Origin: Escherichia coli
Lineage (GTDB): Bacteria > Pseudomonadota > Gammaproteobacteria > Enterobacterales > Enterobacteriaceae
Length of the DNA stretch: 64,000 nucleotides
Strand: one strand, 5' to 3'
Assembly: GCF_051903065.1 (NCBI RefSeq)
Contig: NZ_CP178438.1
In this document: positions 3,217-64,000 of the stretch, piece by piece
Layout: the number at the start of each line of letters is the position of its first letter
How positions within the stretch are numbered: position 1 is the stretch's first letter
Program-made: the position numbers and the translations under genes
The notes under the pieces: model-generated
What the model saw: only the letters and a program-made list of their open reading frames with translations
Told to the model about the DNA's origin: nothing
The model's database searches: none

Positions 3217-3293
<77 letters not shown>

Positions 3294-3350
3294 TTTAGTC
3301 CCGGCGCTTGAGCTGCGGTGGTAGTAATACCGCGTAACAAGATTTGTAGT

Positions 3351-3427
3351 GGTGGCTATAGCTCAGTTGGTAGAGCCCTGGATTGTGATTCCAGTTGTCG
3401 TGGGTTCGAATCCCATTAGCCACCCCA
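3351..3427 (+). tRNA. hisR: tRNA-His (anticodon GUG), with the extra 5' G(-1)
   Basis: GGTGGCTATAGCTCAGTTGGTAGAGC...CCCATTAGCCACCCCA; anticodon loop region TTGTGAT. Confidence 0.95.
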
Positions 3428-3447
3428 TTATTAGAAGTTGTGACAAT

Positions 3448-3534
3448 GCGAAGGTGGCGGAATTGGTAGACGCGCTAGCTTCAGGTGTTAGTGTCCTTAC
3501 GGACGTGGGGGTTCAAGTCCCCCCCCTCGCACCA
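3448..3534 (+). tRNA. leuT: tRNA-Leu (anticodon CAG), long variable arm
   Basis: 87-nt class II tRNA GCGAAGGTGGCGGAATTGGTAGACGCG...CCCCCCCTCGCACCA. Confidence 0.95.
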
Positions 3535-3576
3535 CGACTTTAAAGAATTGAACTAAAAATTCAAAAAGCAGTATTT

Positions 3577-3653
3577 CGGCGAGTAGCGCAGCTTGGTAGC
3601 GCAACTGGTTTGGGACCAGTGGGTCGGAGGTTCGAATCCTCTCTCGCCGACCA
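3577..3653 (+). tRNA. proM: tRNA-Pro (anticodon UGG)
   Basis: CGGCGAGTAGCGCAGCTTGGTAGCGC...TCTCTCGCCGACCA; anticodon loop TTTGGGA. Confidence 0.95.
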
Positions 3654-7282: not shown

Positions 7283-7489
7283 GTAGATGCTCATTCCATC
7301 TCTTATGTTCGCCTTAGTGCCTCATAAACTCCGGAATGACGCAGAGCCGTTTACGGTGCTTATCGTCCACTGACAGATGTCGCTTATGCCTCATCAGACA
7401 CCATGGACACAACGTTGAGTGAAGCACCCACTTGTTGTCATACAGACCTGTTTTAACGCCTGCTCCGTAGTAAGAGCAGGCGTTTTTTT
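7283..7489 (+). ncRNA. glmZ: Small RNA GlmZ (activator of glmS translation), about 207 nt including its intrinsic terminator
   Basis: No ORF; sequence GTAGATGCTCATTCCATCTCTTATGTTCGCC... matches GlmZ as I recall it; located in the aslA-hemY spacer; ends in hairpin aacgcctgctc/gagcaggcgtt plus T7; CATAAT -10 hexamer at 7271-7276. Confidence 0.8.
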
Positions 7490-14637: not shown

Positions 14638-14958
14638 TTAGCGGAAACTGACTGTTTCACCCGCCTGCTGCGTCGCCGCCTGTTCCAGCAAATCCCAGAA
14701 GGTTTCGCCGCTGCGATCGCAAATCCACTCATCGCCTTTCAGATCAAAATGGTAGCCGCCTTGTTTGGTTGCCAGCCATACCTGGTGCAGCGGTTCCTGG
14801 CGGTTGATAATGATTTTGCTGCCATTCTCAAAGGTAATGGTCAGCACGCCGCCGTTGATTTCGCAGTCGATATCGCTGTCGCCATCCCAGTCGTCCAGGC
14901 GTTCTTCAATGGTCAGCCAGAGTTGATCAGCCAGGCGATGAAATTCACTGTCGTTCAT
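14638..14958 (-). CDS. cyaY: Frataxin-like iron-binding protein CyaY, 106 aa
   Basis: 106-aa acidic protein convergent with cyaA. Confidence 0.9.
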
Positions 14959-15040
14959 TGTTGTATCCTGTTTTTAAGTGATGGCGGCAGTATAAGTTGT
15001 TTCGTCTAACAGTGAAATCAACATGGTTCGGCTATAAAAC

Positions 15041-15466
15041 TTAACCTACATACCTCGTCCCATTCCAACGCAAGATTGTATCCTCGTCGCATAAAAGGTT
15101 GTGTACGCCATGATTCTTTTCTTTCATCAGGCTGATTTTGCTACAAAAATAATCAATGTTAATTTTGGAGTTATCCGGGGTCATAATACTGCAAGCCATA
15201 GTTGGTGCGTCACTCGCGGTATATCCACAATCGTCTTTCCCGCAGGCAGCGGGAGGCGTGGAGGGTGAATACGTGCAGTTAAGCGTTTCGGAAATGCCAT
15301 CATCGTTAATGTCGAGGGGACGGCTAATCTCATCGCTGTCAGTGCCTAATGTGGTTGCATCCAGGATGACGTTTGGTTTTTGTATCTCGCTTGTGGCCGC
15401 GTAATTGAAGCTGCTTGCGGCCATTATGCCTAGAGCTATGCCAATCCGTAAGGCTATTTTTTGCAT
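15041..15466 (-). CDS. Small secreted cysteine-rich hypothetical protein, 141 aa (island gene A)
   Basis: ATG with GAGGA RBS upstream; N-terminal signal peptide (ALGIMAASSFNYAA); six Cys in the mature part; start overlaps the stop of gene B; AT-rich. Confidence 0.6.
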   Translation of the reverse strand: MQKIALRIGIALGIMAASSFNYAATSEIQKPNVILDATTLGTDSDEISRPLDINDDGISETLNCTYSPSTPPAACGKDDCGYTASDAPTMACSIMTPDNSKINIDYFCSKISLMKEKNHGVHNLLCDEDTILRWNGTRYVG

Positions 15467-16749
15467 CCTGGTTCCTCTGTAATAATCATAATGTCTCTGT
15501 TTTGAACTTCACGCACATTCTCTTCTCTGACACGAGTTTTCGCCGGACAGGGGGATGGCGTAATCCTGACCTCTGTATCGGTCCAGGTATAAACATTGCG
15601 ATCGTCATAAGCGAAGCGATCGTTTTTAATTAGCGGGCCGTTAGTTGGAATAATTTGCACGCTCTTTGACCGTAATTGGCGGATAAAGTAAACATGTTGT
15701 TTGCCGCCATTAAATGAGTTATCAATGACCAGGTCTGGCGAATCCAGCGGAATTATTTCAAGCTGGTCTTCACCAAAAGTCGATAATTTTGTTACATACA
15801 GACGATCTTTATACTGCGCAATATTGCCAGTAATCAGATGAAATTGTTCAGGTTCAATATCCGGTAGGTCTATCCACTTGCTCCACTGACGGTCGGGCGA
15901 GAGCTGTTTACGCCAGCGAACGCGACTTTCCCCCACTTCAAAAGAGACGTCATCATCTACGGGTATCGCTTTGCCAGATAATTGCCCAAAGGGATAACGA
16001 TGCAGACCATTGTTGTCGCGAAAAACCAGCAGTGAATGAGGTATCCAGCGAATTATCTCAAATGAGTCTGCATTCGCCGTAAGGTGAACGCCATTTAAAT
16101 AAATATTCTGCCCACTGCGGATAAGCAGATCATTGGAATACAAATTTCTGTTTACACTCATAAGACGTGGATTAATACCCCACCATCTTTTTTCTAATAC
16201 AGTAACATTACTGCTGCTCCCCTGACGTCGACCGGACAAATAGAGATTTTTACTATCCACCAGCGTGGTAGAGTTACCTTCGATAGCTTTTAGTGTCGCC
16301 AGATCAACACGTGACGCGCCGCTATTACTTTCGGTGCGCTGTCCATCAAAATAGAGGCTATATTTATCGACCGCGAAGCGGCCCATAGCCTGAAAGCTGG
16401 CAATATCGACAGTGGGTATTCCCGGTGGATTGCTAACGATTTTGCCACGCCAGAGAATAACGCGGCCGTCTGTCACCCAGTGGTATTCCTCATTTTTTAT
16501 GCTTATTTCATCGGTGGGTATATAGCCTTCCACTAACTCCCGCTCCCCGGATATATTTGTCACAAGGCGCAAATCGGCTCTGTTCATCTTCGGAAATTGG
16601 GCAATGATTTTCTCATCCTCCCCATAACCTTTACCGTAAGACATGACACCGTGATCATTGTAATAGTCGAACCCTATGGCCTGTACAGCAGGTGTCAGAA
16701 ATGTGTGCCCCAACAGGATGAGTGCAACTGTGATTATTTGACCATTCAT
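15454..16749 (-). CDS. Secreted repeat protein, DKNYY-like family, 431 aa (island gene B)
   Basis: Signal peptide; repeated motifs DKYSLYFDG, SKNLYLSG, GQNIYLNG, ANADSFEII; paralogous to the upstream 502-aa gene; ATGA overlap with that gene's stop. Confidence 0.8.
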   Translation of the reverse strand: MNGQIITVALILLGHTFLTPAVQAIGFDYYNDHGVMSYGKGYGEDEKIIAQFPKMNRADLRLVTNISGERELVEGYIPTDEISIKNEEYHWVTDGRVILWRGKIVSNPPGIPTVDIASFQAMGRFAVDKYSLYFDGQRTESNSGASRVDLATLKAIEGNSTTLVDSKNLYLSGRRQGSSSNVTVLEKRWWGINPRLMSVNRNLYSNDLLIRSGQNIYLNGVHLTANADSFEIIRWIPHSLLVFRDNNGLHRYPFGQLSGKAIPVDDDVSFEVGESRVRWRKQLSPDRQWSKWIDLPDIEPEQFHLITGNIAQYKDRLYVTKLSTFGEDQLEIIPLDSPDLVIDNSFNGGKQHVYFIRQLRSKSVQIIPTNGPLIKNDRFAYDDRNVYTWTDTEVRITPSPCPAKTRVREENVREVQNRDIMIITEEPGCKK

Positions 16750-18254
16750 TTTGTCGCCTCATTGCGCGGGGCAGGAATAAATTCGCCGTCATCGGTAATT
16801 TTTCCGTCCAGATATCCCGTTTTGTAATTTACCCCGTAGCCATATCCCGAATGTTGTTCCTTCCAGATTAAGCGAACTTGTTTCGGATCAGCGGTGCGGT
16901 ATCGCCAGAGCTGCGCGCCATCAAAGCTGTAAACGTAGCGGTTATCGCGGGCATACCATCTGCGCAAAAAGGGATGGTCATTAAGATGGGCTTCGCGTTC
17001 ATCCGGAGAACGGTTATCCAGTAAGATCAGCGGTCCGTCAGATTCAAACACGTGTAAACCGGAATGGTATGGCCACCCTTCGGCACGCGTAAGTAAATAG
17101 CCGTGGCGTTTCCCGGCGTTGAAACGTTTGTTGATAATAAGATTGGGATCATCAAGTTTCACGATCTCCAGCTTGCGGTCACCAGACTCTGTTTCGATGA
17201 TGGTATAAAGCGAGTCCTGATACTGTGCGACAGCATCACTGATGGGGTGAAACTGTTCCGGATCGAGTCCGGGTAATTCTTCCTGTTTACAGTCAGGCCC
17301 CTGACGCCAGAACACTTTCTTTTCCAGCAGAGAAAAATCCAGACAGTGCTTTGTTAAATCTTCATCCCACGCCAGATTTTCCTTGTCGAGGACTTTACGC
17401 TGCAGCCCGTTTTTATCACGCCAGGTCAAGAGTGAGCCGGGCATCCAGCGCACGACGGAAAAAGTGTCCGGGTCGGCATCAAGCTGTTCGCCGTTGATCA
17501 GGATTTTGGTTCTTGTACGAGCCAGGGTATCCCAGGGGCCAAATGGCATAGCCACACAGGGATTAAACGCGGTAGAAAACTTTCCTCTTTGATCCCATGA
17601 CTTTTGTGCCAGCACACGGAAACTCTCGGGGTCAGCGAGGCGATGCCCATCGACATATAAGAAATTAGCGTCACGTAATATCAGCCCCAGTAAGTCAGGA
17701 TCCCAGGGAGGCCGGAATTCCACCTGATGCAGTGTTTTGATATCTACGCTATTTCCCCCGCCATTGTCATCGGTGCGCTTGCCTTCGAAATAGAGACTGT
17801 GTTTATCTGCGGCAAAATCACCCCATGCCTTGAACGAGGCGACATCGACGGGAGGTTTGTCTGGCGGGTTTTGCACAACTTCACCCGCGTAGAGGATATT
17901 GCGGCCATCGCTATGCCAGGAGTAATGAGGATACCAGGCTTGTGCGCCTTCATAGAGGTAGTCGGTTGTTAGATCAGTCAGAGGTGGTTCTTTATTCCAT
18001 TCATCTTGTGTTGTTGGGTCTATTAATAAATTGGGTAAACGGCGCAAACTCTTGTAATTCACGTCAGGTAGAGAAAGATTTGTTTCTTTATAAGGGCGCA
18101 GGTACACCACGCCTTTTCCCTGTTTCTGGTAAATATTATGTTCAGGTGCATCAAGCCGACATCCCCATGCCGACGATAAGAACAATGAACAAGCCAACAA
18201 ACAAACCACATTGCGATAGTGCATAAAGCCATCCTGGCGCGAGGTGTTGATCAC
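16746..18254 (-). CDS. Secreted repeat protein, DKNYY-like family, 502 aa as called (island gene C)
   Basis: GTG at 18254, or ATG at 18224 giving MHYRNVVCLLACSLFLSSAWG... signal peptide; motifs DKHSLYFEG, DANFLYVDG, ADPESFRVL, ADPDTFSVV; similar to gene B (e.g. NPPDKPPVDVASFKAWGDFAADKHSLYFEGKRT vs NPPGIPTVDIASFQAMGRFAVDKYSLYFDGQRT). Confidence 0.8.
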   Translation of the reverse strand: MINTSRQDGFMHYRNVVCLLACSLFLSSAWGCRLDAPEHNIYQKQGKGVVYLRPYKETNLSLPDVNYKSLRRLPNLLIDPTTQDEWNKEPPLTDLTTDYLYEGAQAWYPHYSWHSDGRNILYAGEVVQNPPDKPPVDVASFKAWGDFAADKHSLYFEGKRTDDNGGGNSVDIKTLHQVEFRPPWDPDLLGLILRDANFLYVDGHRLADPESFRVLAQKSWDQRGKFSTAFNPCVAMPFGPWDTLARTRTKILINGEQLDADPDTFSVVRWMPGSLLTWRDKNGLQRKVLDKENLAWDEDLTKHCLDFSLLEKKVFWRQGPDCKQEELPGLDPEQFHPISDAVAQYQDSLYTIIETESGDRKLEIVKLDDPNLIINKRFNAGKRHGYLLTRAEGWPYHSGLHVFESDGPLILLDNRSPDEREAHLNDHPFLRRWYARDNRYVYSFDGAQLWRYRTADPKQVRLIWKEQHSGYGYGVNYKTGYLDGKITDDGEFIPAPRNEATK

Positions 18255-18333
18255 GATACTGCCAGCAGAACATAAATCCTCACACGTAAGCGTAATTCTC
18301 GCGGCAAATCGTCACTTTTCAGAATCCATAAAG
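18163..18333. repeat. Copy 1 of a 171-bp direct repeat (promoter/leader/signal-peptide module), covering the 5' end of gene C
   Basis: About 93% identical to 19245-19415 at a constant offset of 1082 bp (ccccatgccgacgataa...cacttttcaga). Confidence 0.9.
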
Positions 18334-18590
18334 GTCATTGCTATTTTCTGATAGTTGCTGGGGTAAACGTGATGTTTTCATTCACGATATAAATACGAGG
18401 TACTGCGCCATGGTGTGACTGATCACGTTAAAATGTGCCGGGTTGACGCCGGGAAGGGGTTCAACATGCGACTCTGCCCCCGTTGCCTACTTTATTGTCT
18501 TTCGCGAGTTGTACCCATGTTCCACCACTGGTATCTAACATTCTCCACATTATTACGCTTTCTGCCGAATGTGATTTTTATAGAAATCTA

Positions 18591-19145
18591 TCAATTCATT
18601 TTCCCTGTGCCATAAATTTTATCCTTCACATCCTGCCGAACGCGGGTCTTGTACCCCCCGTTGTGAAGATCTTCATACGGAGAAAAAGAATCTTTACTCC
18701 ACCCCAGCAGCACTTTATCGCCAGGCATAAAATGCACATGCAGAAAATCTTCTCCCCATTCTCTTTTGGGGAGAGGTAACGTCATATTCCGTTTCTCCAG
18801 ACGCATTCCAGCATTATACTGTGTACGAGTAGTACTTAATGTCCAGATAACCTCTGCAGTATCCCCACTGACATCACCACAACAGGTTGTTGAACCTCCA
18901 CCATTTGCAAAAGCATTCGCGCCCGCCACGCCGTTAACACTGAATCCCAGTATCGGACGGTCAATTTCACTGTGGATTTCCAGAATCACTCCACCTCTTG
19001 GACCTCCCCATACTGCCTGCCCTATATTCCACAACACGACCAGTACTGGAACGACAATTAACGTCCGCCATACCCAGCGCCCCCAGCGGGCATAACCGCG
19101 CGTAAGCTTTTGGTCAAATTTTTCCAGTTGGGTAAATAGCCCCAT
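18591..19145 (-). CDS. DUF3304-like membrane-anchored protein, 184 aa (island gene D)
   Basis: ATG with AGGGA RBS upstream; N-terminal TM segment (WRTLIVVPVLVVLWNIG); motifs GFSVNGVAGANAFANGGGSTTCCGD and LHVHFMPGDKVLLGW resemble DUF3304 proteins as I recall them. Confidence 0.6.
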   Translation of the reverse strand: MGLFTQLEKFDQKLTRGYARWGRWVWRTLIVVPVLVVLWNIGQAVWGGPRGGVILEIHSEIDRPILGFSVNGVAGANAFANGGGSTTCCGDVSGDTAEVIWTLSTTRTQYNAGMRLEKRNMTLPLPKREWGEDFLHVHFMPGDKVLLGWSKDSFSPYEDLHNGGYKTRVRQDVKDKIYGTGKMN

Positions 19146-19244
19146 CAGATTTTATTCCCTCTTATCACCAGGTTGGCAAAGTTGTATGTCACTAGCGACT
19201 AAGGTCAGACAACGAAATTGCATGGTGCGCCACTCTATTAAAAG

Positions 19245-19415
19245 CCCCATGCCGACGATAAAAACAACGAACAAGCCAACAAACAAACCACATTGCGATA
19301 GTGCATAAAGCCATCCTGGCGCGAGGTGTTGATCACGAAACTGCCAGCAGAACATAAATCCTCACGAGTAAGCGTTATACTCGCAGCATTTCCTCACTTT
19401 TCAGACTTCATAAAG
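19245..19415. repeat. Copy 2 of the 171-bp direct repeat, upstream of gene D; holds a 32-codon stub of the gene C signal peptide
   Basis: Minus-strand reading from GTG at 19336 gives VINTSRQDGFMHYRNVVCLLACSLFLSSAWGF then a stop at 19238-19240. Confidence 0.9.
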
Positions 19416-19494
19416 AGTCGCTAAACGCTTGCTTTTACGCCTTCTCCTGCGATGATAGAAAGCAGAAAGCGATGAACTTTACAGGCAATCCATA

Positions 19495-19698
19495 ATGAAA
19501 AACGTGTTTAAGGCACTCACTGTATTACTTACTCTCTTCAGCCTGACGGGCTGCGGTCTGAAAGGTCCGCTCTATTTCCCGCCTGCAGATAAAAATGCAC
19601 CGCCGCCGACCAAACCGGTAGAGACGCAAACGCAATCCACGGTGCCGGATAAAAACGATCGCGCCACTGGCGATGGTCCATCCCAGGTGAATTACTAA
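19495..19698 (+). CDS. yifL: Small lipoprotein YifL, 67 aa
   Basis: Lipobox LTGC after a short signal peptide; Pro-rich; directly upstream of dapF. Confidence 0.85.
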   Translation: MKNVFKALTVLLTLFSLTGCGLKGPLYFPPADKNAPPPTKPVETQTQSTVPDKNDRATGDGPSQVNY

Positions 19699-45487: not shown

Positions 45488-47730
<2,243 letters not shown>

Positions 47731-61197: not shown

Positions 61198-62739
<1,542 letters not shown>

Positions 62740-62807
62740 CCTTAAAGAAGCGTACTTTGCAGTGCTCACACAGATTGTCTGATGAAAATGAGCAGTAAAA
62801 CCTCTAC

Positions 62808-62884
<77 letters not shown>

Positions 62885-62926
62885 AATTTGCACGGCAAAT
62901 TTGAAGAGGTTTTAACTACATGTTAT

Positions 62927-63002
62927 GGGGCTATAGCTCAGCTGGGAGAGCGCCTGCTTTGCACGCAGGAGGTCTGCGGTTCGATCCCGCATAGCTCCAC
63001 CA
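62927..63002 (+). tRNA. alaT: Spacer tRNA-Ala (anticodon UGC)
   Basis: GGGGCTATAGCTCAGCTGGGAGAGCGCCTGCTTTGCACGCAGGAGG...CATAGCTCCACCA. Confidence 0.95.
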
Positions 63003-63176
63003 TCTCTGTAGTGATTAAATAAAAAATACTTCAGAGTGTACCTGCAAAGGTTCACTGCGAAGTTTTGCTCTTTAAAAATCTGGATCAAGCTGAAAATTGA
63101 AACACTGAACAACGAGAGTTGTTCGTGAGTCTCTCAAATTTTCGCAACTCTGAAGTGAAACATCTTCGGGTTGTGA

Positions 63177-64000
63177 GGTTAAGCGACTAAGCGTACACGG
63201 TGGATGCCCTGGCAGTCAGAGGCGATGAAGGACGTGCTAATCTGCGATAAGCGTCGGTAAGGTGATATGAACCGTTATAACCGGCGATTTCCGAATGGGG
63301 AAACCCAGTGTGTTTCGACACACTATCATTAACTGAATCCATAGGTTAATGAGGCGAACCGGGGGAACTGAAACATCTAAGTACCCCGAGGAAAAGAAAT
63401 CAACCGAGATTCCCCCAGTAGCGGCGAGCGAACGGGGAGGAGCCCAGAGCCTGAATCAGTGTGTGTGTTAGTGGAAGCGTCTGGAAAGGCGCGCGATACA
63501 GGGTGACAGCCCCGTACACAAAAATGCACATGCTGTGAGCTCGATGAGTAGGGCGGGACACGTGGTATCCTGTCTGAATATGGGGGGACCATCCTCCAAG
63601 GCTAAATACTCCTGACTGACCGATAGTGAACCAGTACCGTGAGGGAAAGGCGAAAAGAACCCCGGCGAGGGGAGTGAAAAAGAACCTGAAACCGTGTACG
63701 TACAAGCAGTGGGAGCCTCTTTTATGGGGTGACTGCGTACCTTTTGTATAATGGGTCAGCGACTTATATTCTGTAGCAAGGTTAACCGAATAGGGGAGCC
63801 GAAGGGAAACCGAGTCTTAACTGGGCGTTAAGTTGCAGGGTATAGACCCGAAACCCGGTGATCTAGCCATGGGCAGGTTGAAGGTTGGGTAACACTAACT
63901 GGAGGACCGAACCGACTAATGTTGAAAAATTAGCGGATGACTTGTGGCTGGGGGTGAAAGGCCAATCAAACCGGGAGATAGCTGGTTCTCCCCGAAAGCT
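63177..64000 (+). rRNA. rrlA: 23S ribosomal RNA, 5' part (continues beyond the window)
   Basis: Begins GGTTAAGCGACTAAGCGTACACGGTGGATGCCCTGGCAGTCAGAGGCGATGAAGGACG. Confidence 0.95.

Follow-up and report, generated by a model that had tools for sequence, protein, structure and literature searches.

A probably composite, polymorphic locus between lptM and cyaY of Escherichia coli and its putative orphan Tli1-type immunity gene

What occupies the interval between the core genes cyaY and lptM (yifL) in Escherichia coli, and is it one system or several? We looked at this in a 64-kb stretch of E. coli DNA (contig NZ_CP178438.1, assembly GCF_051903065.1; hereafter the window, in which all positions are counted). 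There, the cyaY-lptM interval, called here the block, spans 4.5 kb and holds four minus-strand genes encoding products of 141, 431, 502 and 184 amino acids (aa). Open reading frames (ORFs) and the PGAP annotation of ECNB21-M121, in which the region is 100% identical, agree on these four genes. A first-pass annotation had taken the block for a single accessory unit encoding one exported system. We found three origins instead, namely a pair of paralogous DKNYY-type genes (431 and 502 aa), a DUF3304 gene (184 aa) derived from a type VI secretion system (T6SS) and a rare 141-aa gene, so that this interpretation was only partly right. We consider it probable that the locus is a composite and polymorphic one made of three layers: an old DKNYY pair, a captured immunity gene and a rare small gene. 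The anatomy of the locus, its synteny, the insertion scars, the distribution and the selection regime, on which this reading rests, were all observed directly. An orphan T6SS immunity gene, in itself a familiar kind of element, thus occurs here in a new setting, an uncharacterised and evolutionarily unusual locus of exported proteins, of which no published description was found in the literature.

The most recognisable product is the 184-aa protein. As had been proposed, it resembles DUF3304 proteins (PF11745, Pfam E 2.4e-4, residues 63-145), and most of its close homologs carry a precomputed PF11745 match. DUF3304 proteins are the Tle1 immunity proteins of Pseudomonas aeruginosa, Burkholderia thailandensis and Klebsiella pneumoniae, and the P. 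aeruginosa island is ordered vgrG4a-tla1(DUF4123)-tli1b-tli1a(DUF3304)-tle1 (PMC13133936). The window protein shares 69% identity with a DUF3304 protein whose gene lies between DUF4123 and tle1 in a T6SS cluster (vgrG-DUF4123-DUF3304-tle1-vgrG) of EC958, of sequence type 131 (ST131), and of related strains. It is 84% identical to, and as long as, a Salmonella enterica protein (P0150) encoded in a vgrG-DUF4123-DUF3304-DUF3304-tle1-…-vgrG-TseH module. The window protein begins with a charged N-terminus and a single hydrophobic helix that form a signal anchor with no lipobox, and the T6SS-linked paralogs of E. coli and Salmonella have the same architecture. Neither an intact tle1, nor a DUF4123 adaptor gene, nor vgrG adjoins the 184-aa gene; only relics of the module are present, and the gene is therefore termed an orphan. 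Its ratio of nonsynonymous to synonymous substitution rates (dN/dS), 0.03-0.09, indicates strong purifying selection. It is a Tli1-type gene derived from a T6SS effector module, and from homology and gene order we infer that its product would neutralise Tle1. The first-pass annotation could name no enzyme or regulator resembling any of the four proteins. This held, and no defence-system or phage family was matched either, yet the 184-aa protein does belong to a characterised family, the Tli1-type immunity proteins of T6SS Tle1 phospholipases.

The likeness to Tli1 (P. aeruginosa Tli1a, PA3291) lies in the DUF3304 domain, which is predicted to face the periplasm, and in the shared vgrG-DUF4123-DUF3304-tle1 order in which the 69% and 84% identical homologs are found and whose relics flank the window gene. 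Contrarily to tli1a, the window gene has no adjacent effector gene and lies within an unrelated operon, behind a duplicated upstream region. Within this known immunity family it is a new, orphan member whose anchor is unusual, as is the way in which it was captured. Orphan immunity genes include the arrays of Vibrio cholerae, the acquired interbacterial defence (AID) genes of Bacteroidales and the orphan Rhs immunity genes of E. coli. They are well known, E. coli included (PMC6730261). As in these cases, the window gene has no effector, is under purifying selection and is carried by many strains without the weapon. It differs from AID in being the one recognised immunity-family gene of its locus rather than part of an array, in the absence of a recombinase from the block, and in its position, a core intergenic slot inside the head of another gene and not a T6SS cluster or a mobile element.

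Carriage was surveyed in 5426 complete E. coli genomes. The orphan was found at an identity of at least 90% in about 1163 of them, while 510 further genomes had only the T6SS-linked DUF3304 paralog and at most about 73 had both types. Relatives of the linked tle1 that are detectable at the DNA level occurred in 620 genomes (509 near-identical to the ST131 EC958 copy and 111 distant). Most carriers of the orphan are therefore without a detectably related effector.

The way in which this gene entered the block could be read from its borders. Two 171-nt repeats, 92% identical and spaced by 1082 nt, bracket the DUF3304 segment; they duplicate the upstream region and the signal-peptide coding head of the 502-aa gene, and the junction between copy 2 and the insert falls within the lipobox cysteine codon. 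Nucleotide homology to the T6SS module extends 78 nt 5' of the DUF3304 ATG, into the end of the adaptor gene, of which a further 28-nt stretch is 93% identical, with a relic LLIEWRTMQ against LLREWRTMK that was also seen by tblastn. Downstream of DUF3304, with the strand and order expected from the module, lies a tle1 relic reading MLDTSGGTWVQLAKDNKVGNGGRV… and then a stop. Its 27 codons match residues 1-27 of Salmonella Tle1 at 56% identity (tblastn, E 1.6e-4); the match was marginal with ST131 Tle1 as the query (E 0.3). The repeat is present twice, along with the tle1 relic, in every orphan-bearing allele tested (states A, B and D, described below, and a metagenomic contig). In contrast, the orphan-less APEC allele, E. 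albertii and K-12 have one repeat copy and no tle1 relic, and DUF3304 was absent from the lptM-cyaY slot in the other genera examined. This distribution of scars indicates that the DUF3304 insertion was probably one event within E. coli. A 67-aa ORF that joins the duplicated head of the 502-aa gene, in an alternative frame, to the DUF4123 relic is probably not a gene.

A different history was found for the 431-aa and 502-aa genes. The 431-aa protein has few homologs, all in Enterobacteriaceae, and wherever enough flanking DNA was available they were located in the lptM-cyaY slot. This slot holds two DKNYY genes in Citrobacter sp. FP75, four tandem DKNYY paralogs in Klebsiella spallanzanii and, in a metagenomic taxon, a gene for a 664-aa DKNYY fusion protein followed by a PAP2 gene. 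A scan across 100,044 species, with one genome per species, gave ten DKNYY-like loci, one on a contig binned as Collinsella and nine in Enterobacteriaceae (E. coli, E. albertii, Escherichia sp., Citrobacter, K. spallanzanii, Pseudocitrobacter, Phytobacter, Atlantibacter and, as a remnant, Kosakonia). The lptM-dapF flank was present at all nine of the latter and the cyaY flank at eight; an E. coli contig (L025) and the 4-kb Collinsella-binned contig, from a metagenome-assembled genome (MAG), stop short of the missing flanks. The proteins encoded on this 'Collinsella sp.' MAG contig (JAIJJM010000270.1) have 92-99% identity to the DUF3304, 502-aa and 431-aa proteins of E. coli, and it is almost certainly mis-binned E. 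coli DNA. The pair was found in this slot in at least eight genera of Enterobacteriaceae.

Within E. coli, at least 80% of the pair is retained in 1422 of the 5426 genomes (26%). Most of the others keep about 72 nt of the head of a 502-class gene, annotated as a DKNYY pseudogene, and this remnant state includes K-12, BL21, O157:H7, O55:H7 and ST131. On these comparisons, the lptM-cyaY slot was ancestrally occupied by the pair, of which K-12 retains a deletion remnant, contrary to the accessory insertion between core neighbours that had been proposed. The alleles fall into states made of 141-, 431- and 502-aa genes with DUF3304 (state A, this window), 441- and 502-aa genes with DUF3304 (state B, EH031), 438- and 489-aa genes without DUF3304 (state C, APEC IMT5155), a 685-aa fusion with DUF3304 (state D, GPEC1185), or the remnant only (state E, K-12). 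Whether the block is specific to some strains or a conserved locus, a question left undecided by the first-pass annotation, can thus be answered: it is an old polymorphic locus with several allelic states, absent from K-12-like genomes.

These data bear directly on the idea of a single horizontally acquired island whose four proteins would form one new envelope, secreted or surface system. A GC content below that of the flanks, the absence from K-12, the four predicted exported products and the translational coupling of three of the genes all speak for such an island. However, the parts of the block have three histories and differ widely in frequency (1422, about 1163 and 16 genomes), synteny of the pair extends across genera, and the DUF3304 gene bears the scars of a T6SS module and stands 336 bp away from the operon, behind a second copy of the upstream region. 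The single-island reading is largely refuted by these observations, and we regard it as very improbable.

The 431-aa and 502-aa proteins are paralogs, as had been claimed (37% identity, E 4e-62). Their Pfam DKNYY (PF13644) matches are weak and sub-threshold, with three stretches at E 0.006, 0.04 and 2.2 for the 431-aa protein and one at E 1.8 for the 502-aa protein, and the precomputed PF13644 matches on their homologs are graded 'faint' or 'weak'. The family profile of the pair nevertheless reaches canonical multi-repeat DKNYY proteins (E 1e-13 to 1e-4), and the repeat motif D-K-x-x-hydrophobic-Y … G … A-D-x-x-S/T-F is seen in the alignment. A profile search of 1.84 billion representative proteins returned 122 clusters at E <=1e-3. 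Given these few clusters, with canonical DKNYY proteins as the weaker matches, the pair is a small divergent branch of the DKNYY family. Two proteins (P0042 and P0055) have the module of the pair fused to canonical DKNYY repeats. The repeat motif and the profile link tie the pair to the family; its sub-threshold scores and its distinct architecture of about 430-500 aa, confined to Enterobacterales, set it apart. Relatives are labelled 'lipoprotein' in UniProt, and also 'DKNYY family protein' in NCBI and UniProt. Two hypothetical proteins of the ST131 T6SS cluster, of 404 and 149 aa, were compared as possible relatives of the DKNYY and 141-aa proteins and were unrelated.

The export signals of all four products were judged by eye from the sequence, and a predicted signal was found in each, in agreement with the first-pass annotation. 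The N-terminus of the 502-aa protein, …SSAWG-C-R, has a lipoprotein-type cysteine, and this post-signal cysteine is kept across the 502 class (AWG-C, ALA-C). The signal of the 431-aa protein ends in …VQA|I, of the signal peptidase I type, and AxA cleavage sites are kept in the 431 class. The class-conserved cysteine on one side and AxA sites on the other thus point to a predicted lipoprotein (502 aa) and a predicted soluble periplasmic paralog (431 aa); the arginine at +2 of the former suggests sorting to the outer membrane. MliC/PliC offer an analogy, as a membrane-anchored lipoprotein and a soluble periplasmic paralog that are non-enzymatic binders. From an alignment of 37 sequences, AlphaFold2 gave an all-beta model of the 431-aa protein, with a predicted local distance difference test score (pLDDT) of 83.7 and a predicted template modelling score (pTM) of 0.75; a model from the single sequence had a pLDDT of 32 and was discarded. 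Foldseek found no relative of the 431-aa model in the PDB (template modelling score <=0.19), and the sequence profile of the pair had no match in the PDB either. In AFDB50, the relatives were only unannotated Enterobacterales proteins (E. coli, Shigella, Salmonella, Leminorella and Budvicia). No published function was found in the literature for the DKNYY/PF13644 family.

The pair differs from its surroundings in how it evolves. The dN/dS was 0.12-0.47 for the 431-aa gene and 0.11-0.22 for the 502-aa gene, all below 1, against 0-0.09 for most flanking core genes. Among E. coli alleles, the synonymous divergence (dS) of the 502-aa gene was 0.10-0.74, and 0.77 against E. albertii, while in the same E. 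coli comparisons cyaA, dapF and yigA gave 0.03-0.13. The dS of cyaY reached 0.21-0.28, two to seven times that of cyaA, dapF and yigA, which suggests linkage to, or recombination spill-over from, a polymorphic neighbour. On these values, the pair consists of real, fast-evolving genes whose divergence within E. coli is at the between-species level, a pattern typical of diversifying or balancing selection or of inter-species recombination.

A second tandem DKNYY-like pair was found in some E. coli, between the core genes cycA and ytfE (L031:8701-11610 in E. coli KE47, and L033:6844-9386). Its proteins are about 31-36% identical to the window pair, and one of them has a lipoprotein-type N-terminus. 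The DKNYY family is thus present in at least two chromosomal slots. This second pair between core genes, the lipoprotein and periplasmic paralog architecture, and the divergent adjacency to lptM kept in all genera examined would all fit a housekeeping-type role of the pair in the envelope (peptidoglycan, lipopolysaccharide or a periplasmic ligand), perhaps tied to lptM-dapF, with the DUF3304 and 141-aa genes as passengers. We consider this rather unlikely, as about 74% of E. coli genomes have lost the pair, successful lineages included, and it is therefore dispensable; its sequence evolves fast, and its family occurs in no more than a handful of Enterobacterales.

Could the DKNYY proteins themselves be immunity proteins? 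In this case, the whole block would be an immunity depot, the paralogs orphan or stand-alone immunity proteins, and the slot a recombinase-free analogue of AID arrays. The paralogs are tandem, diverged and exported, in copy numbers from 1 to 4, they show deep allelic polymorphism, relaxed dN/dS and frequent loss, and their transcriptional context has taken up and retained a genuine immunity-family gene. Moreover, a cluster of vgrG, a 442-aa gene and a 1274-aa Rhs gene, with trailing small ORFs and an orphan RHS fragment, was seen at 1-4 kb from one distant DKNYY-like gene (P0044; L032:12478-21314), which is convergent with this Rhs array and next to a prophage; this is a single instance, and the contigs of P0042, P0045 and P0055 were too short to inform on their contexts. 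On the other hand, no DKNYY-like gene was found adjoining a cognate toxin, PADLOC and NCBIfam gave nothing, the single DKNYY paper found is silent on function, and the proteins are large. Other surface or periplasmic proteins on which diversifying selection acts, for instance targets of phages or of the host, would show the same pattern. The depot is, in our judgement, unlikely, if somewhat less so than the housekeeping role. Its furthest version is about as doubtful as the latter: the DKNYY paralogs would be a new class of periplasmic toxin-neutralising proteins, the slot a recombinase-free 'immunity depot' under balancing selection, the orphan Tli1 a recruit for shared function and regulation, and the 141-aa protein a co-factor in rare alleles.

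The third layer is the small gene. A 489-bp segment, which stands in place of about 71 bp of the common allele, carries the 141-aa gene together with a new C-terminus for the 431-aa protein. It was found in 16 of the 5426 genomes, always at this locus. The 141-aa protein has the six cysteines counted by the first-pass annotation and a signal ending in …NYA|A, of the signal peptidase I type, which predicts a periplasmic location. Among 5.8 billion proteins, only two clusters of homologs were found. One homolog, P0027 (50% identical), is encoded by the first gene of a DKNYY array of 135, 617, 440 and 463 aa by lptM-dapF in another taxon; the gene overlaps the next one and heads the array, unlike the window gene. 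The small gene has thus been coupled to DKNYY genes twice independently, which suggests that its product is a functional partner of the DKNYY proteins. At the locus of P0027, a fragment encoding 105 aa of a TnpB-like protein (Cas12f1-like_TNB; L013:1240-1557) lies between lptM and the 141-aa homolog, which hints at a former IS200/IS605-type element next to the small gene.

Under the composite reading that we favour, the locus would have been built as follows. Coupled DKNYY paralogs would have occupied the lptM-cyaY slot since before the enterobacterial genera split, evolving fast and often being fused, amplified or deleted. In E. coli, the lipoprotein gene would then have received a vgrG-adaptor-immunity-tle1 fragment in its signal-peptide region. 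The adaptor and effector genes of this fragment would have decayed while the DUF3304 gene stayed intact, its expression probably driven by the duplicated copy of the 502-gene upstream region. The N-terminal helix would fix the 184-aa protein in the inner membrane, with the DUF3304 beta-sandwich in the periplasm, where, with moderate confidence, the protein would bind and neutralise Tle1-family phospholipases injected by T6SS-armed Enterobacteriaceae. Such an orphan would shield cells that have no effector themselves. A rare lineage would have gained the 489-bp segment and with it a cysteine-rich periplasmic protein, probably a partner or ligand of the DKNYY proteins. That the DKNYY pair acts as non-enzymatic periplasmic binders of incoming envelope-targeting proteins, immunity-like or as decoys, is a weakly supported speculation.

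Several observations weigh against this account. The 184-aa protein scores 20.1 bits against the NCBIfam model Tli1a_fam (NF053804), whose cut-off is 110, and thus belongs to the broader DUF3304 family and not to the P. aeruginosa Tli1a equivalog; unlike characterised Tli1a, it has no lipoprotein signal but a membrane anchor. An immunity paralog of V. cholerae at 80% identity is cited as failing to protect (PMC13133936), and at 69-84% identity the Tle1 specificity of the 184-aa protein may differ as well. The anticorrelation between orphan and T6SS-linked genes is confounded by phylogeny. A simple promoter and terminator scan of both upstream regions gave nothing, with no sigma-70-like promoter, so that we only infer the use of the duplicated promoter. 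As for the pair, its connection to toxins runs only through P0044 near vgrG-Rhs, the captured immunity gene and the evolutionary pattern, and 430-500 aa is large for immunity proteins.

If the 184-aa protein does neutralise Tle1, about a fifth of E. coli strains would carry a chromosomal resistance to a T6SS weapon, with relevance to colonisation resistance and strain replacement in the gut. The closest E. coli relative of the window gene belongs to a Tle1 module that is near-identical in 509 genomes, ST131 included. The scar also illustrates how an immunity gene may be rescued while its effector module decays, and come to lie behind a duplicated host upstream region. The divergence of the DKNYY pair, its repeated loss and the lack of a relative among solved folds are the usual mark of molecules at the interface with competitors, phages or hosts, and make the pair a tractable target for functional discovery.

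Table 1. Features of the cyaY-lptM block and its flanks (positions in the 64-kb window).
Feature	Position	Strand	Evidence or remark
cyaY, core flank	14638-14958	-	ORF and PGAP annotation
489-bp lineage-specific segment	14995-15483	no strand	blastn breakpoints against L010 and L011
141-aa gene	15041-15466	-	ORF and PGAP
431-aa gene	15454-16749	-	ORF and PGAP
502-aa gene	16746-18254	-	ORF and PGAP; likely true start ATG 18224
171-nt direct repeat copy 1, native 502-gene upstream region and signal-peptide head	18163-18333		
Inserted T6SS vgrG-DUF4123-DUF3304-tle1 module remnant	18334-19244	-	Repeat-bounded
tle1 5'-end relic	18470-18550	-	tblastn with Salmonella Tle1
184-aa gene (DUF3304)	18591-19145	-	ORF and PGAP
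67-aa chimeric ORF	19152-19355	-	Absent from PGAP annotation
DUF4123 (Tla/Tec-type adaptor) gene relic	19218-19247	-	Nucleotide and tblastn matches
171-nt direct repeat copy 2	19245-19415		92% identical to copy 1
lptM (yifL), core flank, divergent transcription	19495-19698	+	ORF and PGAP annotation

The block is AT-rich, as noted at first, with a GC content of 46.9% against 52.1% for the window, and a GC at third codon positions of 0.44-0.51 in its four genes against 0.54-0.65 in the flanking genes; this bias is genuine and its size modest. The claimed translational coupling of the first three genes was borne out by their overlapping stops and starts: the 502 stop and the 431 start share ATGA, a 13-nt overlap joins the 431 gene to the 141 gene, and GAGG-type ribosome-binding sites (good Shine-Dalgarno sequences) precede the starts of the 431-aa and 141-aa genes. 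The DUF3304 gene stands apart from this operon by the distance given above.

The block was also described as something other than a classical mobile island, and we agree. No tRNA, Rfam RNA family, integrase or transposase was present in the scanned block, no att target was seen, and no genuine plasmid copies of its genes were found in PLSDB. Three PLSDB records with the locus (NZ_OL790696.1, CP061233.1 and NZ_CP141089.1) measure 1.0-4.9 Mb and look like chromosomes deposited as plasmids; in NZ_CP141089.1, the matching region sits among the core genes rpsF, rplI, cycA and ytfE. Apart from the 171-nt duplication on either side of the DUF3304 segment, the block has no repeat, and it contains no recombinase; xerC, 2 kb off, is a core gene. 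None of the five ORFs had a PADLOC match. The 141-, 431- and 502-aa proteins were without a match in NCBIfam and PHROGs as well, the 141-aa protein also in Pfam, and no PHROGs match supported a mobile or phage origin of the block.

In other genomes, further genes were seen in the same slot. In one taxon, a gene for a PAP2-family membrane protein lies between the DKNYY fusion and cyaY (L006:12264-12797 and L007:3021-3611). In K. spallanzanii, metabolic and transport genes are inserted before cyaY (L008:12599-20772), namely a GntR-aminotransferase regulator, an amidohydrolase and two major facilitator superfamily transporters. The lptM-cyaY slot looks like a general hot spot of gene gain. Overexpression of the cyaY-adjacent ORF STM3944 of Salmonella was reported to lower free intracellular iron (PMC8264917). 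We set STM3944 aside as a DKNYY gene; it may instead match the PAP2-family neighbour in L006.

Elsewhere in the window, Rfam matches mark a four-tRNA cluster (3217-3650), GlmZ (7283-7489) and an 'Erse' small RNA (318 bits, 45842-46093), and positions 61198-64000 hold the start of an rrn operon with 16S, two tRNAs, StyR-44 and the 5' part of 23S.

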